A stretch of DNA of 64,000 bases from Candidatus Shapirobacteria bacterium (GTDB taxonomy: Bacteria; Patescibacteriota; Microgenomatia; UBA12405): positions 15,098 to 79,097 of the forward strand of contig JAUYJS010000008.1 of assembly GCA_030698565.1 (NCBI GenBank), given 5' to 3'. Positions within the stretch are counted from its first letter, which is position 1. Each line of letters opens with the position of its first letter. The notes below the pieces were generated by a model that saw only the letters and a list, made by a program, of their open reading frames with translations, was not told the DNA's origin and made no database searches. The position numbers and the translations under genes were made by a program. Below, piece by piece: positions 4,181 through 58,424 of the stretch.

Positions 4181-4359
4181 TAGTTTTGGCAACTCAATTC
4201 AGTTGCCAAGAAATTGAAAGTCTTATAATTACTTTTTTCGATTCAATAAATTGTTAATGTGCAGTATTCAGTTTAAGGAAATAAATTTCTTTATTTCCTT
4301 ATTTCTAAATATCTCTTAAATGGATTTATCCACCGAAGTTCTGCTTTGCAGAACGTAGG

Positions 4360-4660: not shown

Positions 4661-5302
4661 TCACCAGTTTTTACCCATTTTTGCTTTAGCAAATTCTAGT
4701 CCAATTGGAATTATTGAAATTGCAATAATAACAACTACTACATAATGAAAATTAGCCTTAACAATAGGAAAATTTCCAAAATAAAATCCTCCAAATACAA
4801 ACAGAGCTACCCACACTAAACCACCAATAAAATTAAACCAAATAAATCTCCAATAATTCATTTTACCAACTCCCGCTACAAATGGAGCAAAAGTCCTCAC
4901 TATTGGTACAAACCTAGCCAAAATAATTGCCTTACCCCCATGTTTTTCGTAAAAATTAGTTGCTTTATCCAAATATTCTTTTTTCAAGAATCTGCTATTC
5001 ATGCTAAAAGCCCGAGGACCAATAAAATGACCAATCCAATAATTTATTGTATCACCCAAAAAAGCCGCCAAAAACAACAATAAAAATAAAATATAAACAT
5101 TAAAAGAACCAATTGCCGCCAAAGCCCCAGCCGCGAACAAAAGTGAATCACCTGGTAAAAATGGGGTAATTACAAAACCGGTTTCCATAAAAACCACCCC
5201 AAACAAAATTGCATAACTAAGCATTCCGTAATTTTGAATTACCAAAACCAAATTTTTATCTATATGCAAAAACAAATCAACCAAGTATTTTAAAATTGTC
5301 AT
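4661..5302 (-). CDS. DedA/SNARE-associated family membrane protein
   Basis: 213-aa ORF with typical DedA motifs (FMETGFVITPFLPGDSLLFAAGALAA ... ARFVPIVRTFAPFVAGVGKM). Confidence 0.75.
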   Translation of the reverse strand: MTILKYLVDLFLHIDKNLVLVIQNYGMLSYAILFGVVFMETGFVITPFLPGDSLLFAAGALAAIGSFNVYILFLLLFLAAFLGDTINYWIGHFIGPRAFSMNSRFLKKEYLDKATNFYEKHGGKAIILARFVPIVRTFAPFVAGVGKMNYWRFIWFNFIGGLVWVALFVFGGFYFGNFPIVKANFHYVVVVIIAISIIPIGLEFAKAKMGKNW

Positions 5303-5441
5303 AAAGCATTTTAGTCCCTCTGGCTAATCTTTTCCAGACCAAATTTTACTGTCCGCCAAATATTGTTAGCGCTTCCAAACAAAATCAACACCACTGCTCC
5401 CATTAATCCTACAATTCTAAAGTAGTTCCATTTTTTCATAG

Positions 5442-5515
5442 TGGGCAATAGTAGACTCGAACTACTGACCCCCGTCTTATCAGGACGGTGCTCTAACCAA
5501 CTGAGCTAATTGCCC
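5442..5515 (-). tRNA. tRNA-Ile (anticodon GAT)
   Basis: Reverse complement is gggcaattagctcagttggttagagcaccgtcctgataagacgggggtcagtagttcgagtctactattgcccac. Anticodon loop is ct-GAT-aa with a TTCGAGT T-loop. Confidence 0.9.
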
Positions 5516-32520: not shown

Positions 32521-33528
32521 TTATTCTTTTAATAATGGAACCGCTAGAGTTATTGTGGCCGGCCCGGTATCTAATATTCCTTTACCGAGACAAATTAAAT
32601 AAGGTCTCAGAAGAGGATAATTATCAACATCCAAATAAGCTATATAAGTCTGATTAATATTCACTTCCTCAGGTGCCTTGTCTTCAAAATTGGTTAAATC
32701 ATATTGGGCTCCGCCATCAATATTAATAATTTTAAAATTATTAATTGGCAAGGCTTTTATTTCATCAAAATTAAAAGTTGGATAATCATCTTGTTTGGCA
32801 ATTATGGAAGACAAAAGGTCAACATCTAATTTAATTAAAGTGCCGTCCCAAGAAAATCTAGCTACAATGGGAAAGCCTTTATCAGTTAAAATCGGGTAAT
32901 TTTTAATGGCATAATAAGCGTTAATCTTCACAATTTGTGAATTTTCTTTACTACTGCTGACAAATCTGGGATTAATAATTTCCTCATATTCCACATTGTT
33001 TATCGAAATATTTAAACCACTTAAATTCAAGTTTTGATTAACAAGCTTTAAAAAAATATTTTTAATCTGCTCCACTTCTAGTTTTTGGGACACTATCGGG
33101 ATAGGGTTTAGTAAAAGATTTTTATAATAAGAAATCTTATTTTCAGTTTTGTTTATTTCTAAAGTAGATTTATCAGTTTCATTTTCAAAAACAGTTAAAC
33201 TAGAATTATCCAATTTAGAATTATTAAATCCCAAATTTTGGCTCATTTTATTTCCAATTTCTGTAGTATTTGCTTCCCCTAAAACTTTATAAACAGTCAA
33301 GGTGGGATCAATTTTTATATCGTTTATTCCCCAACTAATTTGATTAGGGGATTTCTGGTAGGGTAAAAGATTAGATTGGAATTGTGTTGGTGTTGGGTCA
33401 GTCTTGTTAATAGGTTTTGTAACTGGTTGCTGCTTCAGAAAAAGTAATATTAAAAAAATAACTCCAATCCCAATAATTAAGATTTTTCTAATTGTTTTTA
33501 TTTGGCTCATTTTTATAATTTTCCACAA
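32521..33528 (-). CDS. Exported protein with N-terminal TM anchor, unknown (T4SS-like locus)
   Basis: 335 aa, N-terminal TM. Overlaps the upstream gene by 16 nt, suggesting translational coupling. Confidence 0.35.
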   Translation of the reverse strand: MWKIIKMSQIKTIRKILIIGIGVIFLILLFLKQQPVTKPINKTDPTPTQFQSNLLPYQKSPNQISWGINDIKIDPTLTVYKVLGEANTTEIGNKMSQNLGFNNSKLDNSSLTVFENETDKSTLEINKTENKISYYKNLLLNPIPIVSQKLEVEQIKNIFLKLVNQNLNLSGLNISINNVEYEEIINPRFVSSSKENSQIVKINAYYAIKNYPILTDKGFPIVARFSWDGTLIKLDVDLLSSIIAKQDDYPTFNFDEIKALPINNFKIINIDGGAQYDLTNFEDKAPEEVNINQTYIAYLDVDNYPLLRPYLICLGKGILDTGPATITLAVPLLKE

Positions 33529-36071: not shown

Positions 36072-36105
36072 TAAATAAAATTATATCAATTGCCCCATCT
36101 TTCTC

Positions 36106-38478: not shown

Positions 38479-38479
38479 T

Positions 38480-39184
38480 TTATTTTTTAGTACTAACCAT
38501 TGGGGCGGTGTAATTTAATGTCTGAATTTTTTGATTTATCGAATTTTCTTCATTATATATTTTATAAAACAATTCTATTAATTCTTTAGTTGCTAGTTGC
38601 CTTATTTCCAAACCCAACCTAGCAAATAGTCTCATCAAATGATCTCGTTTAGGTTCCAAATTAGCCTTTGCTTTTTCTAAAATATAATTTTTATCATAAG
38701 GTAATACTTGAGACTTTTTTTTCATCGGCAGTAAACTAGCCAAAATTTGTTTATTAGCCGATTTTATACCCAACTCTAAAACTGAAAATCTAACTAAAAC
38801 ATAAAATGATTTAGATAGTACTTCATTTTTTTTAACCGTCTCTTCTATAAATTTTCTATAAAGCTGAATTCTCTGTTTCAATAGCGGGTTAATTTGTTTT
38901 TCTTCAGCCGTCTTCAAATTATTTAAATAAGCGCTTACATCTTTTGTATTTGATCTGATTAGAATTTGAATTGGAAAATTAAGTGAATTTAAAATTCCAC
39001 CATATGCAAAAACCAAAGACGACTGTTCTTTTTCCGACAAAAGGTCGAAATTTACCGATGATAATTGCATTACCATAGCGCACGACCCATCTTTTAAAAT
39101 CACCACATTATCCACCACATCTTCAATCTGAAGATGCTCTTGAGTAGTTCCTTTAATGGCGATTTTTAATGGGTCACTTGGCAT
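38480..39184 (-). CDS. Hypothetical soluble protein encoded immediately upstream of VirB4 (1-nt gap)
   Basis: 234 aa, no TM segments or recognised motifs. Tight spacing implies co-translation with the ATPase. Confidence 0.35.
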   Translation of the reverse strand: MPSDPLKIAIKGTTQEHLQIEDVVDNVVILKDGSCAMVMQLSSVNFDLLSEKEQSSLVFAYGGILNSLNFPIQILIRSNTKDVSAYLNNLKTAEEKQINPLLKQRIQLYRKFIEETVKKNEVLSKSFYVLVRFSVLELGIKSANKQILASLLPMKKKSQVLPYDKNYILEKAKANLEPKRDHLMRLFARLGLEIRQLATKELIELFYKIYNEENSINQKIQTLNYTAPMVSTKK

Positions 39185-39206
39185 ACCTTTTATTATTAAT
39201 CATAAC

Positions 39207-40142
39207 TTAATTAGAAGCAATAATTCTTATTGGTTTAACAATCTGACCAGACAAATCAATATTAACCCGATCAAAATTACTACCTTCTTTTTCGGCAATC
39301 ATTAAGTAACGACCGTTGGCTAAAGGCGTTGAAGTTTTAAATTGACCCAAAGAGTTAGTTTTTAAAACTCGAGAAGAATTACCATGTTCATCTTGAATTT
39401 CAACAATTACCCCCTCCACTATTCCGCCTTGGATATCCGTCGCCATCCCCACCACTACATTTGGCACATCGGGAATATCTGGCATGGGTATAGTACCAAA
39501 CACAGCACTACCAGTTGCCTCCAATTTTTCCGTTTTTAAGTCTAAATTTGTTTTTTGATTTTTCCAATCGTTGGCAGTGTTTTTAATTTGTGCCTCGGTT
39601 TTTATTACTTCAACTGGTTTACTCGGCTCATCAATTACCGTTGATTTAATTATCTTTTGATCAGGCTTAAAATCCTCCTCTTTTTCCATTTCTGTTTCTT
39701 TAGGTTCCCCTAAAGTCAATGATTTCAGATAATCACTTATCTTTCTTTTTTTGTCTTCATCTTTTAATTGCCAACCTTTATTATTGTTTTCTTCCGCACT
39801 TTCTTCATCCCTATTTTTAGGTTCACTAAAATCAGTTTTAAGCCAGTTTACGTCAACACTTTTTTTGTAAATAAAAATAGTTGGAGAGTAGATTGCCTTA
39901 ATAAAAGAAGATATCCATTTTTCTAATGGTCTATCTTGGAGGGGAACAAAAGCCAATATTAATCCGCCCCCAGCAAAAATTGCCATTAATGGCCATTTAA
40001 CTAGAATCATTATGTTAGTCGCGTTAAATAGCATGGCAATTATTACTCCAGCCGCAGCTTTTAAAAACTGCTTTAAGGTCATTTCACCGACGAGTTTGAA
40101 TTCATACGATGAAATTTGCTGTGGTATTGGGTGTTGTTCCAT
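39207..40142 (-). CDS. Membrane protein: VirB3-like N-terminal 2-TM segment + C-terminal carboxypeptidase-regulatory-like beta-sandwich domain
   Basis: 311 aa. The N-terminal two TMs (LKAAAGVIIAMLF...WPLMAIFAGGGLILAFV) match the small membrane protein that classically precedes VirB4. The C-terminus (VVVGMATDIQGGIVEGVIVEIQDEHGNSS...GQFKT) is CarbopepD_reg-like. Confidence 0.4.
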   Translation of the reverse strand: MEQHPIPQQISSYEFKLVGEMTLKQFLKAAAGVIIAMLFNATNIMILVKWPLMAIFAGGGLILAFVPLQDRPLEKWISSFIKAIYSPTIFIYKKSVDVNWLKTDFSEPKNRDEESAEENNNKGWQLKDEDKKRKISDYLKSLTLGEPKETEMEKEEDFKPDQKIIKSTVIDEPSKPVEVIKTEAQIKNTANDWKNQKTNLDLKTEKLEATGSAVFGTIPMPDIPDVPNVVVGMATDIQGGIVEGVIVEIQDEHGNSSRVLKTNSLGQFKTSTPLANGRYLMIAEKEGSNFDRVNIDLSGQIVKPIRIIASN

Positions 40143-45764: not shown

Positions 45765-46019
45765 ATGAAAAAAAATATTGTTTATATTCTAACCATTTTA
45801 GCCGTTTCTTTTAGTCTTTCAGCTTGTACCACATCAGAATTAAAAATTAAATTATTGGAAAAAGTAGGTCAAAAGGTGGAAAAAGTAGAAAATAAAATTA
45901 ACCAAAAAACTGATGATGAAAAAACCGAAATTAATGACCAAACCCTTCAAGAGTTAAACACCTCTCCTGGTTCAACTATCGACCAGGACCTTGATCAAAT
46001 CGAAATCGATCTTAAATAA
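45765..46019 (+). CDS. Small lipoprotein candidate
   Basis: 84 aa with a signal peptide ending LSAC (lipobox-like). Confidence 0.35.
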   Translation: MKKNIVYILTILAVSFSLSACTTSELKIKLLEKVGQKVEKVENKINQKTDDEKTEINDQTLQELNTSPGSTIDQDLDQIEIDLK

Positions 46020-46407
46020 GACCAAAAGATCTTATTAAAGATAATAATAGACTACAGACACTGACGGCAAATAAGACGCTTAACCAGATTCTAAAACGAG
46101 TTAATTTGTAGTTGTTTTCCAGTTGAGCAAAAATAAAACCGGCCAGTATTATAACCGATATAGTTATTAGCAGGGTAAAGTATGGGAAATCATTTATAAT
46201 TACCTCTCGGCCAATTTCCCCAAATTCAATTAACTCTTTAGGATTGATTACTCCGATTAAATACCAGACTAGTCTAACTAAAACAGAACTAATTATTATC
46301 AACAAAATCCAGCCACCCTTAATTCCTATTTTTTGAATCCGAAACCACCATTTGGGCTTCATTTTAATTTCTTTCTTTTTAATTTGGCTCATTATTTTTT
46401 CTTTCAT
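46012..46407 (-). CDS. Membrane protein, putative anti-sigma factor (by position)
   Basis: 131 aa, 3 TM. Overlaps the ECF sigma stop by 4 nt. Confidence 0.35.
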   Translation of the reverse strand: MKEKIMSQIKKKEIKMKPKWWFRIQKIGIKGGWILLIIISSVLVRLVWYLIGVINPKELIEFGEIGREVIINDFPYFTLLITISVIILAGFIFAQLENNYKLTRFRIWLSVLFAVSVCSLLLSLIRSFGLI

Positions 46408-46967
46408 TTTAGTTTAATTAATTTGTGTTTTAATAATTTTTTAGCTCTAAACAACAATACTCCAACTTGACTATGAGGAATATGTAAAATATCGGAAATT
46501 TCCTCGTAATTTCTATTATCATAATAAAAAAGAAGAATACTTTCTTTATATTTTAAATCTAACTCATTTATGTATTTTTTTATTAATAGGTTCCGTTCAG
46601 TCTCTATTTCTAAATCTTCCGCTAATTTTTGATTGTTATCAAAGTAATCTTCTTTAAAATCCAAAGATTCACTTTTTAGTCTCTTTTTGCTTTTAAAATA
46701 ATCGATGGCGTTGTTGTGGGCTATCCGGTAAATCCAACTGGAAAATTTTTTTTGGGTATCAAATGACTGGATATTTACATAAACACTTACAAAAACCTCT
46801 TGAAGTAAATCTTCCACATCTTCTCCAGATTGATTAATCAAGTTCTTTAAATAAAAAAACAGTTTCTTTTCGTATCTGTCGATCACTAATCCAAACTTTT
46901 CTTGTTTACCTTTTTGGATTAAATTAATTAATTCCTCATCAGTCATAAGTCTATTATACAAGCCCAT
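46404..46967 (-). CDS. ECF-type RNA polymerase sigma-70 factor
   Basis: 187 aa with region 2 (DLLQEVFVSVY...FSSWIYRIAHNNAIDYFK) and region 4 HTH. Confidence 0.8.
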   Translation of the reverse strand: MGLYNRLMTDEELINLIQKGKQEKFGLVIDRYEKKLFFYLKNLINQSGEDVEDLLQEVFVSVYVNIQSFDTQKKFSSWIYRIAHNNAIDYFKSKKRLKSESLDFKEDYFDNNQKLAEDLEIETERNLLIKKYINELDLKYKESILLFYYDNRNYEEISDILHIPHSQVGVLLFRAKKLLKHKLIKLK

Positions 46968-46968
46968 G

Positions 46969-46981
46969 CTACACTTGTAGT
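46969..46981. promoter_or_regulatory. cop-box-like dyad cTACActTGTAgt abutting the ATG of the BlaI/CopY-like repressor gene
   Basis: Matches the TACAnnTGTA operator consensus of BlaI/MecI/CopY repressors. Related dyads occur at 47366-47382, 53273-53288 and 56355-56370. Confidence 0.45.
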
Positions 46982-47350
46982 ATGAATTGCCAAGTTAAAT
47001 GTCGTCAAAAATGCCAATTATTAGGCTCTTTAGAACAAAAAATAATTGAAGTTTTGTGGAATGCGAAAAACCCGCTTAAGCCAGCCGAAGTCCTAATGAA
47101 AATTGAAGGTGAATATTCATATACCACCATCATGACTGTATTAAAAAGGATGTCTTTAAAAGGAATTTTAAAAAGAGAGTTGAATGGTAAGGTCTATTTT
47201 TACAGTCCTTTAAAAATCAAAGAAACTTTTGTTGCCGATTGTTTAAATGACTTATTCGCCCGCCTTTTTGATTGTTATGGGCAAGCTGTAGTTGATTCTT
47301 TTTATTCTTCTGCTAAAGAAGCTAATATTAAAACCTCACTTGCTTCTTGA
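46982..47350 (+). CDS. BlaI/MecI/CopY-family winged-helix transcriptional repressor
   Basis: 122 aa with LGSLEQKIIEVLW...YTTIMTVLKRMSLKGIL. Has an extra Cys-rich N-terminus, MNCQVKCRQKCQ. Confidence 0.7.
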   Translation: MNCQVKCRQKCQLLGSLEQKIIEVLWNAKNPLKPAEVLMKIEGEYSYTTIMTVLKRMSLKGILKRELNGKVYFYSPLKIKETFVADCLNDLFARLFDCYGQAVVDSFYSSAKEANIKTSLAS

Positions 47351-47381
47351 CATTTTTTTTAACTCTACTACACTTTGTAGT

Positions 47382-48893
47382 ATGTCAACAAAAAATAAAG
47401 TTCAAACATTCTTTGTCCAAGGTCTTCACTGTGCCTCTTGTCAATTAATAATCGAAAAAAGATTAATTAAAGAAGATGGTATTGAGATGGTTGATGTTTC
47501 CCTAAACAAAGGATCTCTAACGATTGAACACAATCCTGATCTCAAAATAACACCCGATGTTTTAAATAGAATCTTTAATGAAGACGGTTACAAATTTGCT
47601 CGTGAACATTTCAAAAAGACCCAACAAATAGCTAAAAATAGTCATTGTGCTATTCCAGACGAAGCTCCATCTAATCCTTTAAATTCATATTTAATTGCAG
47701 GTATCTTTATTTTGGGTTATCTATTTTTATCCAAGAGTGGTTTTTCTTCTCTAATTTCAGTTAATTCCCAATCATCTTTACCAGTATTTTTTCTTTTTGG
47801 ATTATTAGCCGGCCTTTCTAGTTGTGCTGCCTTAGTCGGTGGAATAATTTTATCTTTAAGTAAACAATGGTTATCAGTATATAGCTCCGACGAATCAACC
47901 CTGAGAAAATCCGAGCCCCATATTCTTTTTAATCTAGGTCGAGTTTTAGGTTATGTCGTTTTAGGGGGAGTTTTAGGTTACATCGGTAATTTCTTTAGAC
48001 TATCGCCAATTACCACCGCATCGATAGTTATCTTAGTTTCTTTATTTATGGCCGCTTTAGGTTTACAAATGGTTGGAGTAAAAGCTTTGCGTAATTTTCA
48101 AATTCGATTACCCACATCTATAACCCGAAAATTAGCTGATGAAACTAATTTCCAAGGGCGTTTGGGACCATTTTTAATGGGGGCCTTAACTTTCTTTTTA
48201 CCCTGTGGTTTTACTGCTACCGCTCAGGCTTTAGCTCTTTCTTCAGGTAATCCTACTCAAGGAGCTTTGATTATGGGTTTATTTGCACTAGGTACGGTTC
48301 CTGGCCTTTTAGCTATTGGTTTAAGTAGTGTCAAATTTTATAGTGATCCCAAAATTTCTCGTCAGTTTTCTTTAATTGCCGGAATTTTAGTTCTGTTCTT
48401 TTCCATTTTCAATATCAATTCTCAGATGTCGGTTTTAGGTGTTTCTAGTCTAAGTGATTTAATTCCGAGTAACATAGCAACAAAAACCCAAACTGTGGGG
48501 GAGTTGCCGCCAATGGTGAACGGAAAACAAGTTATTAAAATTAAAGCGTCTTCCACTGGTTACATTCCAAATCGTATTACGATGAGAGCCAATACTCCAA
48601 CACGCTGGGAAGTTACCGATACTGGTACTAGTGGTTGTACCAACGCTATTATTTCCCGAAGTTTATTTGAAGGTCAAATTGACTTAACCCCCGGTACTAT
48701 ATCTTTTAAGGAATTTACATCACCTAAGCCAGGGAAATACAAGTTCTCTTGTTGGATGGGGATGATATCTGGAACAGTAGAAGTAGTGGATGAAACTGGC
48801 TCAACTGGAGCTACTGCAAATGCCGTACCAGTTGAATCTGGAGCCAAAGGTTGTGGTTGTGGTGGAGGCGGTAGCGCCTGTGGCGGCCGCTAA
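47382..48893 (+). CDS. Heavy-metal-associated (HMA) domain + DsbD_2/CcdA-like membrane domain + C-terminal cupredoxin-like domain protein
   Basis: Start reassigned to ATG 47382 (MSTKNKVQTF). GLHCASCQ HMA motif, about 6 TM with an LPCG motif, and a C-terminal cupredoxin-like domain (KPGKYKFSCWMGMISGTVEVV) with a Gly/Cys tail. Confidence 0.55.
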   Translation: MSTKNKVQTFFVQGLHCASCQLIIEKRLIKEDGIEMVDVSLNKGSLTIEHNPDLKITPDVLNRIFNEDGYKFAREHFKKTQQIAKNSHCAIPDEAPSNPLNSYLIAGIFILGYLFLSKSGFSSLISVNSQSSLPVFFLFGLLAGLSSCAALVGGIILSLSKQWLSVYSSDESTLRKSEPHILFNLGRVLGYVVLGGVLGYIGNFFRLSPITTASIVILVSLFMAALGLQMVGVKALRNFQIRLPTSITRKLADETNFQGRLGPFLMGALTFFLPCGFTATAQALALSSGNPTQGALIMGLFALGTVPGLLAIGLSSVKFYSDPKISRQFSLIAGILVLFFSIFNINSQMSVLGVSSLSDLIPSNIATKTQTVGELPPMVNGKQVIKIKASSTGYIPNRITMRANTPTRWEVTDTGTSGCTNAIISRSLFEGQIDLTPGTISFKEFTSPKPGKYKFSCWMGMISGTVEVVDETGSTGATANAVPVESGAKGCGCGGGGSACGGR

Positions 48894-48943
48894 ATTTATT
48901 GAATTTATTAATTCTTAATTATTAATTTTTAATTAAACTAATT

Positions 48944-49156
48944 ATGCAAACAGTAACTTTTAGTATTCCCGACATGCACTGTCCTTCTTGTCCTAAATTA
49001 ATCAAATTGACTTTACTAGACATCGATGGGGTTAATGAAGTTGAAGCTTCGTTAGACACAAAAAAAGTAGTTGTTAATTTTGATTCTCAAAAAACTTCAG
49101 TTGTTTCACTTATTAATTCAATCAAAGAAACTGGATATACCGCCAGTCTTAAATAA
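48944..49156 (+). CDS. copZ: Copper chaperone CopZ (HMA domain)
   Basis: 70 aa with the MHCPSC metal-binding motif. Near-duplicate of the first HMA domain of the downstream ATPase. Confidence 0.8.
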
Positions 49157-49160
49157 ATCT

Positions 49161-52100
49161 ATGACTCAAGATATAAAATCAAAGCAGGTGATTTTATCTG
49201 TTCCCGATATGCACTGTCCTTCTTGTCCTAAATTAATTACTCTCGGCCTCAAGGATCAATCCGGAGTTATTTCTGTTAATGCTTCTTTGGAAAATAAACA
49301 AGTCGTTGTTAATTTTGATCCGGAAAAAATTAAAATCAACGATTTATTAGCCAACATAAAAGAATCTGGATATACAGCCATATCCAAAGAGAACGGAGAT
49401 ATGCCTGTTATCGAAAATGCACCACCTGAATTACCTACAAAAACAATTACTCCAACTACTGTTTCTGGTACCCAGGTTGCCCTTTTAAATTTAACTGGTA
49501 TGCACTGTTCTTCATGTGCTGGTTTAATTGAAAGGTCTCTTAAAAAAATACCCGGCGTGACTGAAGTCAATGTTAATTTTGCCTCGGAAAAAGCCCGGAT
49601 TGTTTACAATTCCAACACAACAAAGGTTGAAGATTTGATTAAAGGTGTCGAATCAGCTGGTTACCACGCCTCACAGCCTGGTGAAAAAGAAGAAAACCAG
49701 AAAGAAAAACGAGCCCACGAAATTAGTTATTGGTCCAAAAAATTTCTCCTAGGTCTGGTTTTGAGTTTACCCATGATTCTTTTCATGGTTTACGATTTCA
49801 CTAATGCCATTCCATTTAAGACCAGCATTATGCCTTACGCCGGAATTCTCTCACTGCTTTTATCCACCCCGGTTCTTTTTTATGTCGGATCAAACTTTTT
49901 CGCTGGTTTTTGGTCAGCCCTAAAAATGCGAACTTTTTCTATGGATTCGTTAATTGCTATCGGTACCGGTACTGCTTTCACCTACAGTCTTTACGAATTC
50001 ATTAAATATGCTTCTGAAACAGGTTCCATTATTGGTTTAAATGGCACAAAGGTTCCAGATCTTTATTTTGAAGTAGCGGCATTTTTAATCACCTTTGTTT
50101 CTTTAGGTAAATATCTTGAAGCCAAAGCCAAAGGCAAAACTTCCGAAGCGATTGAAAAACTCACAGGGTTAGCTCCTAAAACCGCCCGAGTTATGCGTCA
50201 AGGTCAACCAATCGATATCCCAGTAGAACAGGTCGTTGTGGGGGATATCATTGTTGTTCGTCCTGGTGAAAGAATTCCAGTTGATGGTGAGGTAGTTTCT
50301 GGTTATTCAGCTGTCGATGAATCGATCCTTACGGGTGAATCTTTACCTGTTGAAAAACAAATTGGGTCTAAAGTTTATACAGCTTCTATCAATAAAACCG
50401 GTTCCTTCGAATTTAAAACTACAAAAATTGGTGCCGACACAGCCTTAAGTCAAATCGTAAAATTAATTGAAGATGCCCAAGGGTCTAAGGCGCCAATCCA
50501 AGCTGTTGCCGACAAAATTTCTTCAATTTTCGTTCCAGTGGTTATTGGAATTGCCATTCTTACCTTCATAGTTTGGTATTTTTTACTTAGTGCCACTTTA
50601 ACCTTTTCTCTTTTAGCTTTTGTTGCTGTTATCGTTATTGCCTGTCCTTGCGCCTTAGGCTTAGCTACTCCGACTTCAATCATGGTCGGAACTGGCAAAG
50701 GGGCCGAATATGGTGTTTTGATAAAAGGTGGTGAACCTTTAGAAATGGCTGAAAAAATCAAGGCCATCGTCTTTGACAAAACTGGTACCCTAACTAAGGG
50801 TAAACCAGAAGTAACCGACTTTATAAATTACCTGCCAGGTGATCAAACTATTCTTTCAGTTTTGTATTCAATTGAACAAAAAAGCGAGCATCCCTTGGCC
50901 GAAGCCATTGTTCGTTATGGTCAAAATACTGGTGCTGTTAATTATGCCATTGAAGACTTTCAAGCCATCCCAGGTCATGGTGTCAAAGCCACCGTTAATG
51001 GGCAAGTCTATTTTGTAGGTAATCGTAAACTTTTGGAAATCAACCAAATTCCTCTAACTTCTGGTTATGACATGGAAAGATTAGAAAACGATGGTAAAAC
51101 CGCCATGGTCATAGCTAATCAAGAAAAAGTTTTAGGTTTAATTGCTGTAGCCGATCAAGTTAAAGAATCATCTGCTTCAGTTGTCTCCAAGCTAACAAAA
51201 ATGGGTATAACTGTTTATATGATTACTGGCGACAACCGTCGTACAGCTGATGCAATCGCTAAACAGGTCGGTATTACTAATGTATTAGCTGAAGTTTTAC
51301 CTCAAAATAAAGCTGAGGAAGTTAAAAAGCTTCAAGATTCTGGTATTAAAGTTGCCATGGTTGGTGATGGTATTAATGACGCTCCAGCTCTAACTCAAGC
51401 TGATTTAGGTATAGCCATGGCCTCTGGTGCCGATATTGCCATGGAATCAGGAAATATTGTAATAATGACCAACGACTTAAACGGCGTTTTAACTGCCATA
51501 AGTCTATCGCGGGAAACTGTTGGTAAAATTCGTCAAAACATGTTTTTTGCCTTATTTTATAACGTCTTAGGTATCCCGATTGCAGCCCGCGCCTTAGCTT
51601 TTATGGGTCTTATTCTTAAGCCTGAGCTAGCTGGCTTGGCTATGGCATTGTCTTCAGTTTCAGTTGTGACCAATTCTTTAACCCTAAAATTATTTAAGCC
51701 AGGTAAATTCAATTGGATTTCTCGTTTAGCCCCTTTTGTTATGGTGGGTCTATTTTTAGGTGTATTTATCGAATTTGCTCGATTTTCTTCCCAAATGGGA
51801 GGATTAGAGTCTGGGGCCAAATCTGGGCCGGCTGCCTATATTCAAAAAGCTCCAGTTATTAAAACAGTCATAAATAGGCTTTTGGTCGACAATGCTTCCA
51901 AGATTGGTTTTGCGGAAAACCTCCCTAAGTTATTTATAGGTGTCAACAAATTACCTGAATCAATAATGCTAGCCGAGGGCTCCTCCGATCTTTCAGAACA
52001 GGGAAGTGTCATTTTAGGTGCCAAAGAAGCTGCCATGATGACAGAAGAAGGTTTAATTAGTGGTATCAATTCTGAGATCCCTGACTTTTTCGGGCTACCC

Positions 52101-52544
52101 AAATTAAAAGTTGTCGGCATCCTGGCTCCTACTGGCACGATTCTAGACGAATATCATATCTTTAGTAAAGATAGCTTAGAAGGTTTAACCAAAGCTAATA
52201 ATGATTTTCTAATTACAGAAACTCCCCTAGAAGACCTTAAACTTTTTTATCTTTATGACAGTGCCAATATCCCTAAGGCTTTAGATTCACTTATCAACCC
52301 AGCCAAAACTTCATATACGATTGATGGAACTAAATATCTTTCGACCGTAATTGGTTATGATGAGGCCAAAATGATGATTAAAGAAAAACTTTTCCAAAAA
52401 AAGTTTGACACCATCAAAGATATTTTTGGCAACAATATTATAATTACCGGTCTTCCTAAAAAGACTCTTACTAGTCTTGATATGATGCACTTTGTACCCA
52501 GGGAATTTAAAGATAATTTTATTTCCACCTCTGAAAATAAATAA
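49161..52544 (+). CDS. copA: Copper-translocating P1B-type ATPase CopA with two N-terminal HMA domains and a ~300-aa C-terminal extension
   Basis: Start reassigned to ATG 49161 (MTQDIKSK), directly after the copZ stop. Motifs: MHCPSC, GMHCSSC, TGES, CPC ([12 protein letters not shown]), [17 protein letters not shown]. About 300 aa follow the last TM, with no counterpart in canonical CopA. Confidence 0.85.
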
Positions 52545-52556
52545 TCTATATAAAGT

Positions 52557-52970
52557 ATGAAAATTCCACCAAATTTAATACTTATTACTATTCTTATTGT
52601 TGGTGGATTTTTATTATTAAAATCTCCCACTGTTGTGACTACAACCAATCCAATATTAGAGGTAACTCCGACAACAGTTCCGGTTACAGACAAAGTACAA
52701 ATTTTAAAAGCCACATATGGACCACCAACAGGTTTTTACCCCATAGAATTTACTGTTAAAGCTGGTCAGCCAGTTCGACTTGAAGTTTTAGCCACTGAAA
52801 ACGGTCGTGGATGTATGGGAAGTATTATGGTTCCGGATTTTCTTCCTGACGATATTCAGTTTTTTACAAAAGGGGAAACAAATGTTTTTGAATTTACACC
52901 CACTATCCCAGGGGAATACCAAATAACCTGTGGCATGGGCATACCCCACGCTAGTTTAGTCGTTAAATGA
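52557..52970 (+). CDS. Membrane-anchored cupredoxin-like protein
   Basis: 137 aa, N-terminal TM. Its C-terminal domain is homologous to the C-terminus of 47382-48893 (EYQITCGMGIPHASLVV vs KYKFSCWMGMISGTVEVV). Confidence 0.5.
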   Translation: MKIPPNLILITILIVGGFLLLKSPTVVTTTNPILEVTPTTVPVTDKVQILKATYGPPTGFYPIEFTVKAGQPVRLEVLATENGRGCMGSIMVPDFLPDDIQFFTKGETNVFEFTPTIPGEYQITCGMGIPHASLVVK

Positions 52971-52972
52971 CC

Positions 52973-53236
52973 TTATTTCTCAGTTATCTTGTTATAAAGC
53001 CAACCCGTCGAACAAACAACTATCCAGGTCATGGCTGCATAAAATACAGCACCAAAAAGCATTTCTGGAATATTTAAAACAGTTACTTGTAAATCAGTCA
53101 ATTTAATTCCATGAAAAGCCATTGAGTACATTCTAAAAGAAATTTCAGGAAATAAATTTGTGATTACCGAGCACAACAAAAAATAAACAAATGTTACCGC
53201 CGCTGCTGCAATTGCTAAGATTCTATGCCTAATCAT
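52973..53236 (-). CDS. Small membrane protein, unknown
   Basis: 87 aa, 2-3 TM helices. Confidence 0.3.
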   Translation of the reverse strand: MIRHRILAIAAAAVTFVYFLLCSVITNLFPEISFRMYSMAFHGIKLTDLQVTVLNIPEMLFGAVFYAAMTWIVVCSTGWLYNKITEK

Positions 53237-53333
53237 TTAAATATTAATTAATAATTAAAAAAAAACGGTTACCTACTATAAAGTGTAGAATTACCTTAAG
53301 GAATTATCAACAGTTAAATTACTAGAATAAATT

Positions 53334-55364
53334 ATGGATCATTCAAAACATCAAATGCACGATATGTCCCACATAGACCATGAATCAGCCATGACCAATC
53401 CGAAAATGGCTGAGTTTATGGAAAAAGACATGCGTAACCGTTTCTTTTGGTCGTTACTTCTAACTATCCCCACGCTTTTGTTTACTTATCTTCCAATACC
53501 AACCGTAATCCCTAAAAACTGGTTATTAATGCTTTTGGTGACTCCAGTTGTCTTTAAATTTGGGTCGATTTTCCCTGTCGGTGCTTACGAAGCACTTAAA
53601 AAGAAAACTCTAAACATGATGGTTTTAATTGCCATCGGAGTATTAGCTGCCTACATTTTTAGCGTGGTAATAACTTTGTTCATTGGCGGTGAAACTTTTT
53701 TTGAAGCCGCGGCCATGTTGGTAACTTTTGTTCTCTTTGGCCATTGGATGGAGATGAAATCTCGTCGGGGAACATCAGACGCTCTTCGAGCTTTATTTGA
53801 TTTGGTTCCGCCACAGGCGCGAGTCTTTAGAGGTGGACAAGAATTAGTTATCTCTACTGCCGATGTTTTAATTGGTGATATTGTGATTCTTAAACCAGGC
53901 GATAAAGTTCCAGTTGATGGAGAAGTAGTTGAAGGCGAGACATCTATCGATGAATCTTTAGTAACTGGAGAATCGATTCCAGTTGAGAAAAAAGTTGGTG
54001 ATTTAGTCATTGGCGGATCGATCAATCAAATGGGATCACTTAAATTTAAGGCCATCAAGGTCGGTGCCGATACTGCTCTGGCACAAATCGTCAAACTGGT
54101 AGAAACCGCTCAAAATTCCAAAGCCCCAGGGCAAAGAATTGCCGACAAAGCTGCTCAATATTTAGTAATTTTAGCTATTGGATCAGGACTAATTACATTT
54201 ATAGTTTGGTATTTTGTACTAGGTCAATCATTATTATTTGCTTTAACTTTTGCTATTTCGGCTGTAGTCATTGCTTGTCCCGATGCCCTAGGACTGGCTA
54301 CCCCCACTGTCGTGGCTGTTGGTACTGGTTTGGGCGCTAAACATAATATTTTGATTAAAGATGCCACCACACTCGAACAAGTATCCAAAATTAATACTGT
54401 AGTGATGGACAAAACCGGGACTTTAACTGAAGGAAAACCAATTGTGACTCAAGTGATTGCGGCCAAAGGATTTACTGAAGATCAGGTCTTGATGTACGAT
54501 GCAGCGGTTGAAAAAATGTCGGGTCATCCATTAAGTAAAGCAATTCTTTCTGAAGTAGAAAAACGCAAACTGTCAATTTCAAATGACGTCAAAAACTTTA
54601 AAGCAATTTCCGGTCATGGAGTTGAGGCTATAGTTGATGGCAAACAGATAATCGTTGGCAATTTAAAACTAATTAAAGACAGGGGGATTGACATAGCCCC
54701 AATAGAATTATCGGTTCAAAAGCTTTTAAATGAAGGTAATACAATTATGTTATTGGCTATGGACAACAAGATTGCCGGAGTTGTTGGTGTCGCCGACCCA
54801 ATCAAAAAAAGCTCATATATCGCCGTTAAAAAGATGCAGGAAATAGGGATTGAAGTGGCTATGATTACCGGAGACAATCAAAAAACTGCAGATAATATTG
54901 GTAAAACTTTAGGAATTACTAGAATATTTGCCGAAGTGTTACCAGAAGATAAAGCCAATTATATTAAGAAACTCCAGAATGAGGGTAAATTTGTGGCCAT
55001 GGTTGGAGACGGAGTCAATGATGCACCAGCCCTCGCCCAAGCAAATATTGGTATTGCTATTGGCGCAGGAACTGACGTGGCTATTGAAACAGCTAATGTC
55101 GTCCTAATGAAGTCAGACCCATTAGATATTTTAAGAGCCATTCGATTAAGCAAAGCTACTGTCCGAAAAATGAAAGAAAATCTGGTTTGGGCCAGTGTTT
55201 ATAATGTTTTAGCCATTCCTATTGCCGCCGGAATATTATATCCAAGCATGGGTATAACTCTTCGTCCTGAAGTTTCAGCATTATTAATGTCTGTTTCTTC
55301 AATTATCGTGGCTACTAATGCAGTTTTATTGAAACGTGCGGAAAAGAATTTAATTACTATATGA
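53334..55364 (+). CDS. P1B-type heavy-metal ATPase, CopB-like (His/Met-rich N-terminus) with a CPD transmembrane metal-site motif
   Basis: 676 aa. The N-terminus (MDHSKHQMHDMSHIDHESAM) has no HMA domain. Motifs: TGES, IACPDALGLATP (CPD rather than CPC/CPH), DKTGTLT, GDGVNDAPAL. Confidence 0.8.
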   Translation: MDHSKHQMHDMSHIDHESAMTNPKMAEFMEKDMRNRFFWSLLLTIPTLLFTYLPIPTVIPKNWLLMLLVTPVVFKFGSIFPVGAYEALKKKTLNMMVLIAIGVLAAYIFSVVITLFIGGETFFEAAAMLVTFVLFGHWMEMKSRRGTSDALRALFDLVPPQARVFRGGQELVISTADVLIGDIVILKPGDKVPVDGEVVEGETSIDESLVTGESIPVEKKVGDLVIGGSINQMGSLKFKAIKVGADTALAQIVKLVETAQNSKAPGQRIADKAAQYLVILAIGSGLITFIVWYFVLGQSLLFALTFAISAVVIACPDALGLATPTVVAVGTGLGAKHNILIKDATTLEQVSKINTVVMDKTGTLTEGKPIVTQVIAAKGFTEDQVLMYDAAVEKMSGHPLSKAILSEVEKRKLSISNDVKNFKAISGHGVEAIVDGKQIIVGNLKLIKDRGIDIAPIELSVQKLLNEGNTIMLLAMDNKIAGVVGVADPIKKSSYIAVKKMQEIGIEVAMITGDNQKTADNIGKTLGITRIFAEVLPEDKANYIKKLQNEGKFVAMVGDGVNDAPALAQANIGIAIGAGTDVAIETANVVLMKSDPLDILRAIRLSKATVRKMKENLVWASVYNVLAIPIAAGILYPSMGITLRPEVSALLMSVSSIIVATNAVLLKRAEKNLITI

Positions 55365-55463
55365 AAACAATAAAAATAACCGCGATTCTCACCTGTCCCG
55401 AATGTAATAAAGCGCAATCAGTTATAATGTCCCTTAAAACAACTTGAAGGTACAAAAAAAGAT

Positions 55464-56309
55464 TTATTTTAATGCCGCATCAGCCACTGACTTCATATCA
55501 GTCCAGCTATATGCTCCAGCAAAGTTGGTCGAATTTAGATAAAATCCAGGAGTTCCGTTTACACCCAAGGAAGTCGCTAATGCAGAATCTTCAGCTAAAC
55601 GGGTATTATATTTGCCACTATCAAGACATTTCTTTAATTCACTTTTATTAACAGCAGATGCTAAGAAATCGGCTACCTGCTGCGATTTAGTGGCATCGTT
55701 TTTGACTTCGTCATTGATTAGTGTATAACCCTTGGCCGACATTAAAAGATCATGTGCTTGCCAAAACTTACCTTGATCAAAGGCACAATAAAGAGCCTTT
55801 GTTCCTAGTTCTCCGTTCCCGTGACCATTCGTATAAATCCACACAAAATCTGCTTTTCCTTGATCAATTAATTTTTTCATTTCCAAAATAGGTGGTACGT
55901 AAGTTCCACCCTGTGAAACTAATTTGAATTGTGGTCCCATTTGAGCTCCAATTTCAGTATTGGCTCCAGAGGCGACGCCGCAATAAGGACAGCTCGGATC
56001 CGATACTTCCACCATTAATAATTTTTTATCACCTTTACCAAATTTAATTACATTTTTAGAAAACAGACCCTTGATGGTTTCTTGTGATATTTGAGGTTTA
56101 CCTGGTACTTGTTGGGCTGGTTGAGGATCATTGACCGTCGGGTTGGCTACTACAGTAGCTTGATCACCATATTTGCTTTTCCCAAAAAGATACCCAACAG
56201 CAAAAGACAGAAGTATTATAAGCAAGGAAAAAAAATAAAGCATACTCTTATCTACCACTAATGGAGTAGGTGAATTATATCTTGTTGGTTGATTACTTTT
56301 TCTTATCAT
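55464..56309 (-). CDS. Membrane-anchored DsbA-like thiol:disulfide oxidoreductase (thioredoxin fold)
   Basis: 281 aa, N-terminal TM, CPYC active site (DPSCPYCG). Confidence 0.7.
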   Translation of the reverse strand: MIRKSNQPTRYNSPTPLVVDKSMLYFFSLLIILLSFAVGYLFGKSKYGDQATVVANPTVNDPQPAQQVPGKPQISQETIKGLFSKNVIKFGKGDKKLLMVEVSDPSCPYCGVASGANTEIGAQMGPQFKLVSQGGTYVPPILEMKKLIDQGKADFVWIYTNGHGNGELGTKALYCAFDQGKFWQAHDLLMSAKGYTLINDEVKNDATKSQQVADFLASAVNKSELKKCLDSGKYNTRLAEDSALATSLGVNGTPGFYLNSTNFAGAYSWTDMKSVADAALK

Positions 56310-56371
56310 ACTAGATTCTATTAACGCTAGCCAAAAATGTCAAGAAGGTAATGTGCTACAATAGGTAGTAT

Positions 56372-56740
56372 ATGGTAAAAACCGATCTTTTAGGTTCACT
56401 TGAGCAAAAAATCATGGATATTTTATGGACTGCCAAAACTCCCCAAAAACCAGCCCAAGTTCTAAAAAAACTTAAGGGAAAATACGCCTACACCACTATT
56501 ATGACTGTTCTAAAACGGATGAACGATAAGTGTGTTTTAGAAAGAAAATTAATTGGTAAGGTTTATTTTTATTCCCCCTTAGCCAATAAAGAAAAATTTA
56601 TTAAATCTAATTTGTCGGGAATTTTTGATGAATTAGTTGGTTCTTATGGCCACCTCGCCATCTCACAATTTGTCGATTCTATAAAAAATAATAAAGATGA
56701 TTTAAAATTACTTCAAAAATATTTAAGTCAAAACAAATGA
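56372..56740 (+). CDS. BlaI/MecI/CopY-family transcriptional repressor (paralog 2)
   Basis: 122 aa with LGSLEQKIMDILW...YTTIMTVLKRMNDKCVL. Overlaps the downstream M56 gene by 4 nt. Confidence 0.7.
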   Translation: MVKTDLLGSLEQKIMDILWTAKTPQKPAQVLKKLKGKYAYTTIMTVLKRMNDKCVLERKLIGKVYFYSPLANKEKFIKSNLSGIFDELVGSYGHLAISQFVDSIKNNKDDLKLLQKYLSQNK

Positions 56741-57693
56741 ACTCAAAAAGTTTAAACAGTTTTCGTAACCTTTTTTTCTTTTTAATTGTCAGTCTCGGTT
56801 TAATTTACACTTTAATACTAGTCAAAGGTTTAGGTCGGTCAATGTCGGGCTTTGTTATGCAACTAATTTTTCTTTTAGACATTTTAAAAACCCAACCACT
56901 TCTTTCATTAAAATTAATATTTTCATCCCAGTTCGTTTTTAATGTTGGTTTTGGTTTTACTATTTTATTTCTCAGCCTTAAATATTTAAACGCCTTACTT
57001 CGCTCATTATTAAACTTTAATTTAACTCAAAAAACCATAAAAAATTTAATAATTATTAAATCAAACAAGAAATATTTTATTTTTAAATCAACTCAACCCC
57101 AAGCTTTTACTGTCGGATTTTTCTTACCCAAAATTTATATTTCTACATCTCTTATTAGAAAAAGTACAGACATTGAACTTAAGGCTGTATATCGGCATGA
57201 ATTAAAACATAAAATGAACTTAGATCCACTAAAAGATTTTATTATTAATTTTATTTCACTATCACTTCCCCCATTTTTTGGTAAAAAAAAGTTTTTTGGT
57301 CAATATTCTGCCCTCGTGGAAATTAATTGTGACTCTTTTGCCCAATTAAAACTTAAAAGTAGTCTTCCTTTAGTTTCTGCCTTGCTCAAAACAACATCTT
57401 CTCATTCAGTAATCTTGGAAACCGCCGCTTATTTTTCTAGTCAAAGTGAAAGAATAAAAGTCTTGGTCGGTGAAAGTCGACTAAAAATTAAACAACTATT
57501 TTTAATGAATTCATTCATTTTAGTTTTTGCCATATTTAGTTTAAATCTGGTTACTAACACCAATCTTTTTTATAACTGCGAGCACGTACTTAAATGTGTC
57601 CAAATCTTTTTATCCGAGAATAAGCAAACTAAATTAGTTAATTCTTCACCTGTTTCAGTTTCTCCAGTTATGGACCATTGTCCCCAATGCTAA
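56737..57693 (+). CDS. BlaR1/MecR1-like M56-family membrane metallopeptidase (no C-terminal sensor domain)
   Basis: 318 aa, polytopic, HEXXH motif (YRHELKHKMN). C-terminal CPQC. Confidence 0.5.
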   Translation: MNSKSLNSFRNLFFFLIVSLGLIYTLILVKGLGRSMSGFVMQLIFLLDILKTQPLLSLKLIFSSQFVFNVGFGFTILFLSLKYLNALLRSLLNFNLTQKTIKNLIIIKSNKKYFIFKSTQPQAFTVGFFLPKIYISTSLIRKSTDIELKAVYRHELKHKMNLDPLKDFIINFISLSLPPFFGKKKFFGQYSALVEINCDSFAQLKLKSSLPLVSALLKTTSSHSVILETAAYFSSQSERIKVLVGESRLKIKQLFLMNSFILVFAIFSLNLVTNTNLFYNCEHVLKCVQIFLSENKQTKLVNSSPVSVSPVMDHCPQC

Positions 57694-57744: not shown

Positions 57745-57885
57745 ATGATGTTTCCTTATTTTTATGGTTCTGAGTTTGGTACTATGGGTATTTGGTTTAT
57801 TTTAAGTATTTTAACCTGGGCCGGTTTTTTAATTCTTTTATTCTTATTGATAGTTTATTTGCTTAAACGAATTCGCCAACAGTAA
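57745..57885 (+). CDS. Possible 46-aa single-TM micro-protein
   Basis: Translates to MMFPYFYGSEFGTMGIWFILSILTWAGFLILLFLLIVYLLKRIRQQ. Below the ORF-track length cut-off. No further support. Confidence 0.2.
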   Translation: MMFPYFYGSEFGTMGIWFILSILTWAGFLILLFLLIVYLLKRIRQQ

Positions 57886-57965
57886 AAACTCTTTAATAAC
57901 TACATATTGTAGTATATAATTATCTATTGCTTATTCTCTTATAAATTAACCTGTTAAAATAAACT

Positions 57966-58424
57966 ATGTTTTTAGTTAACCCAGCTTATGCCCAATGTCC
58001 GGTTTGTATTGTTACTGTTGGCGGTGGTATGTTTATCGCCAGAAAGCTAGGCGTAGACGATTTATTGGTTTCTACATGGATTGCAGCTTTAAATGTAGCC
58101 GCTTCTTTTTGGTTGGCTCCAAAAATAAAAAATAGAATATTGGGCAACCCGGTTATATTTTCCTTATTAATGCTCGGTTTCACTTTTTTTTATTTTTATA
58201 CTACAAAACAAATCGGTCTCCTTCATAGCAAAATTTTAGGAGTAGATAAAATTATTTTAGGTCAAATCATTGGAACCTTAATTATGTTTTTAGGCATCTT
58301 TATTGATCGTTTTTCTCGGATTAAAAACGGTGGTAAAATTCTTTTCCCTTACCAGAAAGTCATTTTTCCTATAGGTTCGCTTTTAATTATTACTCTTATT
58401 TTTAAATTTGCCTTCAATCTTTAA
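57966..58424 (+). CDS. Membrane protein, unknown (N-terminal CPVC motif)
   Basis: 152 aa, 4 TM. Confidence 0.35.
   Translation: MFLVNPAYAQCPVCIVTVGGGMFIARKLGVDDLLVSTWIAALNVAASFWLAPKIKNRILGNPVIFSLLMLGFTFFYFYTTKQIGLLHSKILGVDKIILGQIIGTLIMFLGIFIDRFSRIKNGGKILFPYQKVIFPIGSLLIITLIFKFAFNL

Follow-up and report, generated by a model that had tools for sequence, protein, structure and literature searches.

How Cu(I) leaves a P1B-type pump without re-entering the cell or damaging the envelope is understood mainly for Escherichia coli, in which CopA passes it to CusF; in organisms without a periplasm this exit step is not understood. A concrete and testable candidate for it is a domain, here named X, in the C-terminal extension of a CopA copper pump encoded by a metagenome-assembled genome (MAG) of Candidatus Shapirobacteria, a small groundwater bacterium of the candidate phyla radiation (CPR/Patescibacteria) with a reduced genome. 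We analysed 64,000 nucleotides (nt) of this genome (assembly GCA_030698565.1, contig JAUYJS010000008.1, positions 15,098 to 79,097; hereafter the window), whose proteins are identical to NCBI MDP4009938-MDP4009951 (locus tags Q8P53_03055-03120), encoded on a contig of 353.7 kb, and whose copper locus is also present in an independent Logan assembly. The best explanation for the window's 46.0-58.4 kb is a chromosomal copper-export regulon, with components all of known kinds: P1B ATPases, CupA, BlaI/PetRP and a cop box. We are highly confident on four points: that this is a copper-export regulon, that the fusion of X to CopA is genuine, that X is a dedicated partner of CopA and that BlaI-type operators mark the regulon. 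Our overall reading, a BlaI-controlled copper-export regulon in which X would handle exported Cu(I), has a probability of roughly 55%. The genes at its centre are the following:

48944..49156, plus strand: CopZ-type HMA metallochaperone (HMA, 7e-17)
49161..52544, plus strand: CopA, whole gene, 1127 amino acids (aa), with two HMA, E1-E2 and HAD domains
49161..51707, plus strand: CopA core, a P1B-1 Cu(I) ATPase with two HMA domains (CPC, YN(x4)P and MALSS)
51714..51785, plus strand: ninth (extra) transmembrane (TM) helix linking CopA to X (AlphaFold2 (AF2) helix at extension residues 3-31; hydropathy; junction kept in homologues)
51834..52541, plus strand: X domain, about 235 aa, predicted extracytoplasmic, with two tandem repeats (about 51891-52187 and 52188-52517)

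Gene content was checked with Pfam and NCBIfam. The core is a P1B-1 pump: read from the translation, all catalytic motifs (DKTGT, TGES, HP and GDGxND) are present, as are the TM metal-site motifs CPC, YNVLGIP and MALSS that mark the P1B-1 class, and the protein matches Pfam E1-E2_ATPase (3e-60) and Hydrolase (1e-40) and NCBIfam ATPase-IB1_Cu (2e-186). P1B CopA proteins are described with eight TM helices and terminal domains that are solely cytosolic (PMC7558416; PMC11970713). The window's CopA departs from this description in that a hydrophobic helix, kept in homologues, follows the eighth TM helix; the protein is a CopA plus an added module. An earlier reading of the sequence without database searches (the sequence-only reading) had described a roughly 300-aa extension of unknown fold after the last TM helix. 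The extension is real and lies outside the family libraries, but it measures 278 aa, in frame beyond the normal CopA end, and starts with a TM helix of its own.

The open reading frame (ORF) is unbroken in the window, in the NCBI MAG and in the Logan assembly. Searching 5.8 billion proteins returned 13 relatives of the extension; wherever their N-terminal side is present it is joined to the CopA C terminus via the same junction, which recurs in homologues at 34-98% identity. Using an X motif, we retrieved 23 species genomes, and X is in frame with CopA in 20 of the 20 CPR genome loci that have the CopA 3' end on the contig, the fusion being found in Shapirobacteria, Gracilibacteria, Absconditabacteria/SR1 and Peribacteria. 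One homologue, the 1125-aa CopA::X protein P0015 (P-numbers denote homologous proteins and L-numbers the loci of relatives), has Trp wherever Gly is expected, for example in WMHCTSCAW, which points to a genome with UGA as a Gly codon (Gracilibacteria/Absconditabacteria) whose proteins the source database had translated under the wrong genetic code.

Within the extension, the hydrophobic helix is followed by a low-confidence linker and then by the roughly 235-aa alpha/beta domain X (AF2, mean predicted local distance difference test (pLDDT) score 86.5, predicted template-modelling score (pTM) 0.77). Its two halves are homologous (hhalign probability 99.8%, E 1.3e-29, 93 columns) and each carries the motifs G-x2-E-A-x-M-M ... 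F-F-G ... T-x-T-x-L-D-x2-H, so by sequence comparison X is an internal tandem duplication. Over 102 near-complete domains, conservation is as follows:

X repeat 1: G104 98%, E107 90%, M111 91%, T142 97%, D147 99%, H150 87%
X repeat 2: G216 96%, E219 91%, M223 91%, T253 90%, D258 100%, H261 82%

This pattern makes E107, M111, D147 and H150, together with E219, M223, D258 and H261, candidate ligand positions; the window's X has no Cys at all. As the eight-helix core of CopA ends in the cytoplasm and a ninth helix follows, X is predicted to lie outside the membrane. Stand-alone forms of X have an N-terminal anchor with Lys/Arg before it, in agreement with this location.

X has no match in Pfam even at E<=10, none in NCBIfam and none that is meaningful among Protein Data Bank (PDB) sequences; neither Pfam PF12704 (MacB_PCD) nor the FtsX TM domain (PF02687) is matched. 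At the structural level, the top 29 Foldseek matches all fall in MacB/LolC/LolE/FtsX-type families, with E about 1e-2 and template-modelling scores (TM-scores) of 0.25-0.34. In the literature searched, of which coverage was incomplete, we found no CopA fused to an extracytoplasmic or MacB-like domain, and neither a P1B pump extended by a ninth helix and a duplicated domain outside the membrane nor the X family as such was found in the family libraries or that literature. As far as these searches reach, X is previously undescribed.

An exhaustive profile search of a 50%-identity library found 125 X representatives at E<=1e-30, including some that match the CopA tail only; the family comprises at least 125 representatives, about 100 of them with a near-complete domain. 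Its members are either fused to CopA (950-1130 aa in all) or, in many cases, stand alone (245-280 aa), and those with a retrieved source name are annotated as 'hypothetical' or absorbed in the ATPase annotation. Stand-alone X genes lie beside copA in Altiarchaeota, Woesearchaeota and Nanoarchaeota, as on an Altiarchaeota contig where a separate 276-aa X gene starts 3 nt past copA. X is fused to CopA in CPR bacteria and is a split gene in DPANN archaea and Altiarchaeota; a module common to CPR bacteria and DPANN archaea suggests older lateral spread.

A metagenome scan contributed 80 loci to a total of 96 distinct X loci, in 74 of which CopA is fused or adjacent. Among the other 22, 19 are cut short less than about 400 nt upstream of X, several of them retaining a short C-terminal fragment of CopA, and three belong to a divergent X clade. 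When only informative loci are considered (at least 2.6 kb on both sides, n=42), CopA is present in 42/42, fused in 32 and directly adjacent in ten. A CupA-like cupredoxin, either an HMA-DsbD_2-cupredoxin protein or a small cupredoxin protein, is encoded in 37/42 of these; a CsoR regulator is found in 13/42 and BlaI with a protease in 7/42. The divergent clade (L028-L031) sits in operons of the order CsoR–secreted 152-aa unknown protein–X–membrane-fusion protein (MFP)–RND, in which CusA/CzcA is the best-scoring model for the RND protein and X has the gene position of CusF, just before the MFP and RND genes. X is strictly copA-linked, fused to the exit side of the pump in whole CPR classes, and the coexistence of fused and split forms provides a 'Rosetta-stone' argument for functional partnership.

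Possible outside partners of such a domain are two cupredoxin proteins, which flank copZ and copA, and a second ATPase follows them:

47382..48893, plus strand: HMA + DsbD_2 + Cupredoxin_1 membrane protein (Pfam), with a cytoplasmic HMA domain, 7 TM helices, an outer cupredoxin domain and a Gly/Cys-rich tail
52557..52970, plus strand: CupA-like cupredoxin protein, membrane-anchored, 137 aa (C...CxMxI-P-H; Cupredoxin_1, 1.2e-6)
53334..55364, plus strand: second P1B ATPase, with a His/Met-rich N terminus, no HMA domain and the TM4 motif CPD

The larger cupredoxin protein combines a DsbD_2 core, with two invariant intramembrane Cys, and a CupA-like domain (C...CxMxM); its seven TM helices are predicted, and loop charges fit an inward HMA domain and an outward cupredoxin domain. 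Invariant in its 37 homologues are the HMA CxxC (C17 and C20), the intramembrane C148 and C275, and the cupredoxin residues C419, C457 and M459, a pattern consistent with a transmembrane relay of Cys residues that would pass on either copper or reducing power. Its Gly/Cys-rich tail, GCGCGGGGSACGG (48800-48890), occurs in about half of the 37 homologues. Both cupredoxin domains match the PDB sequences of CupA (2MRY/4F2E), with E 1.6e-4 for the large protein and 4.7e-5 for the 137-aa one, and the CupA C...CxMxM ligand positions align in both, the 137-aa protein having CxMxI.

These parts can be assembled into a pathway for exported copper. CopZ hands cytoplasmic Cu(I) to the P1B-1 pump CopA, as is established for the family, and would bring it to CopA here. 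Through the ninth TM helix, CopA carries the duplicated domain X, which at the pump's exit would take Cu(I) through the conserved Glu, Met, His and Asp positions and either release it or, in the manner of CusF, pass it to the outside-facing sites of the CupA-like cupredoxins. CusF itself is a small periplasmic Cu(I)/Ag(I) chaperone of cusCFBA with Met/His-type ligands, to which CopA passes Cu(I). The HMA-DsbD_2-cupredoxin protein, the CPD-type ATPase, a DsbA-like protein and a CPxC protein may add auxiliary extracytoplasmic or thiol-based copper handling. Copper binding by X is what gene context, conservation and analogy point to, and that X accepts Cu(I) at the CopA exit is a tentative proposal, to which we assign slightly less than even odds.

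How the locus may be switched on is suggested by its regulators and the sites around them:

46982..47350, plus strand: BlaI/MecI/CopY-family repressor 1 (BlaI-1), 122 aa (Penicillinase_R, 1.4e-17)
56372..56740, plus strand: BlaI-family repressor 2 (BlaI-2), 122 aa (Penicillinase_R, 6e-23), whose stop codon overlaps the protease start
56737..57693, plus strand: BlaR1/PetP-like M48/M56 zinc protease, sensor-less (HELKH), overlapping BlaI-2 by 4 nt
46970..46979, no strand: operator 1, TACACTTGTA (within GCTACACTTGTAGTATG), abutting the BlaI-1 start codon; same arrangement in L005
47369-47379: operator 2, TACACTTTGTA, with the promoter -10 inside the operator (feature 47347..47379, plus strand)
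57901..57911, no strand: operator 3, ACTACATATTGTAGTA, inside a promoter-like TTAATA-16-TATAAT 5' of a 152-aa gene; conserved in L006 and L008
53277..53287, no strand: degenerate operator-like site, TATAAAGTGTA, one mismatch, between the DUF5676 and CopB-like genes (weak evidence)
56357..56367, no strand: operator-like site, TACAATAGGTA, one mismatch, 5' of BlaI-2

The pattern TACA-N2-4-TGTA has exactly three sites in the 64 kb (46970, 47369 and 57901), and all three fall in the cluster's non-coding DNA, which amounts to about 650 nt or about 1% of the window; by simple arithmetic, chance alone would place all three there with a probability near 1e-6. BlaI/MecI/CopY proteins are already known to recognise the TACA/TGTA core, and a TACAnnTGTA-type operator stands before a cop operon of the CopY/CopR kind (PMC7253601). 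In L005, L006, L008 and L011 the longer palindrome ACTACA-N2-3-TGTAGTA precedes the corresponding genes, namely those for BlaI, the HMA-DsbD_2-cupredoxin protein, DsbA and the 152-aa protein. At operator 2, a promoter-like TTGACA-16-TACACT (47347-47374), with an ATG 8 nt past the -10, is conserved in L005, L008 and L011; as a consensus match only, it suggests a leaderless transcript and repression by promoter occlusion.

The two repressors are 56% identical, neither has the CopY motif CxCx4CxC, and both score under the TIGR02698 cut-off (33 and 47 bits against 122). BlaI-1 has a predicted Cys-rich N-terminal extension, MNCQVKCRQKCQ (46982-47017), which BlaI-2 lacks, and no protease gene lies beside it in the window. 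The protease is, like BlaR1/MecR1, a membrane zinc protease with HExxH encoded beside blaI, and, as the sequence-only reading had seen, lacks a sensor domain, here their extracellular penicillin-binding one; it ends 44 residues after its last TM helix with no transpeptidase domain. That reading had further raised the question whether BlaI-like proteins with M56 partners regulate cop genes, and that they do so is plausible: a BlaI-M48 pair stands directly upstream of the operon in L005, L007, L008, L011, L078, L090, L099 and L101, and the cop-box operators are conserved. Two BlaI-protease pairs occur in L078, L090/L092 and L101, one 5' of the cop operon and a divergent second 3' of it, followed by a DsbA-like gene. 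Following its last TM helix, the window protease carries the motif C281-x-H-x3-C287 ... (H)C315; across 13 homologues (32-42% identity), H154, E155, H158, E195, C281, H283 and C287 are invariant and (H)C315 is nearly so.

Regulation could then proceed as follows. The two BlaI-family repressors would bind ACTACA-N2-3-TGTAGT operators overlapping the promoters that drive the cop operon, the repressor genes themselves and the CPxC-protein gene, and the sensor-less protease would cleave BlaI once copper is sensed, lifting repression. Cleavage of BlaI is proposed by analogy with related pairs, and the likely sensor would be the Cys/His tail of the protease, outside the membrane. From context, conservation and analogy, we hold it an even call that this tail senses copper. 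Joining both proposals, X may represent a new class of extracytoplasmic copper acceptor, or 'exit chaperone', for P1B ATPases, dedicated to ultra-small monoderm prokaryotes, derived from a duplicated unit like the MacB extracytoplasmic domain (ECD) and partnering outward CupA-like sites, with external copper sensed by the CxHx3C...HC tail in an extension of the PetRP mechanism to efflux control; this larger claim is more tentative than the acceptor role of X, and we would put it at about one chance in three.

Four other explanations have to be weighed against this one, two of which question the locus itself. That an assembly error or frameshift joined two genes at the CopA extension, which the sequence-only reading had considered for its junction, finds some footing in archaea, where CopA and X are encoded separately, at a distance of 3-30 nt; we nevertheless reject it almost with certainty, given an identical 1127-aa product in two independent assemblies, an in-frame fusion in 51 distinct loci of several CPR classes and a conserved junction sequence. 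The same reading had suggested horizontal acquisition of the cluster, and had named a frameshift-fused extension together with unchanged composition and synteny in all relatives as what would count against its view; of these, synteny is indeed conserved and the frameshift is excluded. A recently acquired genomic island would account for a total GC content of about 0.38 in the cluster compared to about 0.30-0.33 in the immediate flanks, for a codon usage at a distance of 0.584 from that of the rest of the window's genes as one set (p about 0.02; null 0.371 +/- 0.086), for a module common to CPR bacteria and DPANN archaea and for type IV secretion system (T4SS)-like genes 6 kb upstream. However, the GC excess is confined to codon positions 1 and 2 (third-position GC content (GC3) 0.264 compared to 0.282 +/- 0.037 in other window genes), and the codon distance from this mostly plus-strand cluster to other plus-strand genes (0.377) matches the null mean (0.371), whereas plus- and minus-strand genes of the window differ by 1.04. 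The deviation is gone once gene strand is controlled and is thus explained by strand. No tRNA, integrase or flanking repeats are seen at the cluster borders, and in other Shapirobacteria the core order is unchanged and the right-flank 152-aa, 183-aa and Crp-like genes are kept, with the CPD-type ATPase, the small cupredoxin protein, DUF5676, DsbA and the second BlaI being variable. There is no sign of recent acquisition, and we consider an island very improbable. Strand asymmetry of this kind runs through the whole window, with third-position C (C3) 0.21 and G (G3) 0.08 on plus-strand genes, C3 0.08 and G3 0.20 on minus-strand genes and a negative GC skew throughout; such bias can mimic 'foreign' codon usage.

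The remaining two accept the regulon and question its functions. For X, the chief competing view is that it docks, as MacB-type domains typically do: rather than binding copper, X would be an adaptor, like MacB/LolC/FtsX-type domains, that tethers CopA to an outside partner, for example to the CupA-like cupredoxin domains here and to an MFP elsewhere. All strong structural neighbours of X are protein- or ligand-docking domains of type VII ABC transporters, the divergent clade adjoins an MFP gene and lacks the Met/His positions, and the cupredoxins are co-encoded in 37/42 loci. Yet the CopA-linked majority keeps two symmetric Glu/Met/Asp/His sets, which look more like ligand sites than a docking surface, and no MFP gene lies near CopA::X in CPR loci; we regard docking as a serious but less probable explanation. 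Alternatively, the BlaI/M56 module may answer a non-copper signal, for example envelope or thiol-oxidative stress, with copper control coming from elsewhere. BlaR1-family proteases respond to a variety of signals, the conserved tail is built on Cys and a DsbA-like gene belongs to the regulon, and CsoR is in place at 13/42 X loci. Against this, the operators stand specifically before copper genes and are conserved, no other copper sensor (CsoR, CueR or the CopY Cys motif) is encoded in the cluster, and PetP is a copper-dependent member of the same architecture, so we find this rival unlikely. Several observations nonetheless weigh against our reading of a BlaI-controlled regulon in which X handles Cu(I). 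The similarity of X to MacB is partial (Foldseek E-values about 1e-2, TM-scores 0.25-0.34), and MacB-type domains usually serve protein docking or mechanotransmission, not metal binding. The RND-linked clade lacks the Met and His positions (P0128), so these residues are not universal to the fold. Promoter-like matches as a class are not enriched over shuffles, the Met pair proposed to sense copper in PetP (TM2-TM3 loop) is absent from the window protease, Cys residues outside the cell may be oxidised, and a sigma-factor gene pair at the left edge of the cluster is not kept with it in relatives.

CopZ and the first HMA domain of CopA (HMA1) are, by sequence, paralogues, which the sequence-only reading took for near-identical products of a recent tandem duplication. 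They are in fact 59% identical (39/66; 36% for HMA2) and have in common an unusual DMHC(P/A)SCP loop. Across four Shapirobacteria genomes, identity is 71-85% between HMA1 domains and 53-71% between CopZ proteins, compared to 47-59% between CopZ and HMA1 of one genome. Orthologues therefore group by domain type across genomes, and the duplication is old, preceding the divergence of the sampled Shapirobacteria; this identity matrix also rules out recent gene conversion.

The rest of the cluster comprises the following genes:

46012..46407, minus strand: 3-TM protein, 131 aa, putative anti-sigma (ORF, TM prediction), overlapping the ECF sigma gene by 4 nt
46404..46967, minus strand: ECF-type sigma factor, divergent from BlaI-1 (Sigma70_r2 3e-17, Sigma70_r4_2 1e-9, NCBIfam sigma70-ECF 4e-27)
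52973..53236, minus strand: DUF5676 2-TM protein (Pfam), also in L008, L011 and L107
55464..56309, minus strand: DsbA/thioredoxin-fold oxidoreductase, membrane-anchored, CPYC (Pfam), with a promoter-like TTGACA-17-TAGAAT
57966..58424, plus strand: 4-TM protein, 152 aa, its N terminus bearing a conserved AQCPxC motif, with operator 3 upstream

The sequence-only reading had drawn a dense copper-homeostasis cluster in a reduced genome, with two BlaI-type repressors and twin cupredoxin domains, and this picture is borne out: the copper genes that it listed all exist (Pfam, NCBIfam, ORFs). Its list lacked the DUF5676 gene (52973-53236, minus strand) and ended at 57693, whereas the regulon reaches to at least 58424. 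Its ECF sigma/anti-sigma pair stands in part, as the sigma domains are found, but the partner has no recognisable anti-sigma domain (no Pfam domain at all), lies beyond the start that it had given and in relatives is not kept beside the cluster. We reject the pair as part of the copper system because it is not conserved with the cluster in relatives. The 152-aa AQCPxC protein is a probable member of the regulon. It is kept beside cop clusters, including L033 (30% identity), a stand-alone-X locus of DPANN-archaeal type; the RND-type loci encode an unrelated protein of the same length, 152 aa. A 46-aa single-TM ORF (57745-57885) lies just 5' of its gene.

Elsewhere in the window, the T4SS-like genes (33513-40142, minus strand), 6 kb upstream of the cluster, encode a PrgI-family protein, a TraG/VirB4-type P-loop ATPase (790 aa), an 852-aa protein with an M23 peptidase domain and a TraC-like protein. 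At 956-5515 (minus strand) are found, in this order, 5S, 23S, tRNA-Ala, a 213-aa DedA/VTT-domain gene (4661-5302) and tRNA-Ile, such that the DedA/VTT-domain gene sits between the two rRNA-spacer tRNAs, Ala and Ile. No 16S is adjacent, and the next gene encodes a RimK-like ATP-grasp protein.

Compared with known systems, the window's CopA resembles the CopAs of E. coli, Archaeoglobus fulgidus and Legionella pneumophila in its N-terminal HMA with CxxC and its catalytic and TM motifs (MxxSS), but these have neither its ninth TM helix nor its roughly 235-aa extracytoplasmic C-terminal domain. As a functional analogue, CusF is likewise a small extracytoplasmic protein encoded with copper efflux pumps; its fold is unrelated, and X differs in being membrane-anchored or fused and in that its copper role is putative. 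From the extracytoplasmic domains of type VII ABC transporters (MacB/LolC/LolE/FtsX), X is set apart by the lack of sequence similarity and of an FtsX TM domain, by its tandem duplication, by a single TM anchor on a P-type ATPase and by global TM-scores of 0.25-0.34.

CupA of Streptococcus pneumoniae is, like the window's cupredoxin proteins, cupredoxin-like with C...CxMxM and encoded with copA. This Cu(I) chaperone, anchored in the membrane, has one bis-thiolate and one Met-rich site and is described as feeding CopA from the cytoplasm (PMC7558416), whereas one window copy is the C-terminal domain of the 7-TM HMA-DsbD_2 protein and is predicted to face outwards. The second ATPase, which the sequence-only reading called CopB-like, is indeed a P1B ATPase without HMA, but its metal-site motif is CPD and not CPH. 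It has in common with CopB/P1B-3 and the Rhizobiales CPD subtype a His-rich N terminus and no HMA domain, with CPD in the TM4/TM6-equivalent helix; in place of the MSxST of CopB/P1B-3 it has MSVSS, kept together with CPD in the L005 orthologue. The CPD subtype (VIc, Rhizobiales) is recorded as uncharacterised (PMC5552934).

The window's BlaI proteins belong to the same winged-helix family as CopY/CopR, with which the locus also has in common a cop box upstream of the cop operon (sites 46970, 47369 and 57901); they differ in lacking the CxCx4CxC copper/zinc site, in a 3-nt spacer at most sites and in having a partner protease. By analogy, the closest known system to the BlaI/protease pair is PetR/PetP of Synechocystis, a BlaI-family factor with a 4-TM sensor-less M48/M56 protease that degrades the factor with copper (PMC7896320; 10.1101/2020.07.31.226407). 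Compared by the published description of PetP, both pairs have overlapping stop and start codons, 4 TM helices and a cytoplasmic HExxH. The window's targets are instead copper-export genes, its operator is TACA-N2-3-TGTA and not GACN5GTC, and the Met pair of the TM2-TM3 loop is absent in the 13 aligned protease homologues, which have the CxHx3C...(H)C tail. The comparison suggests that PetRP-type proteolytic copper sensing extends beyond cyanobacterial photosynthesis genes.

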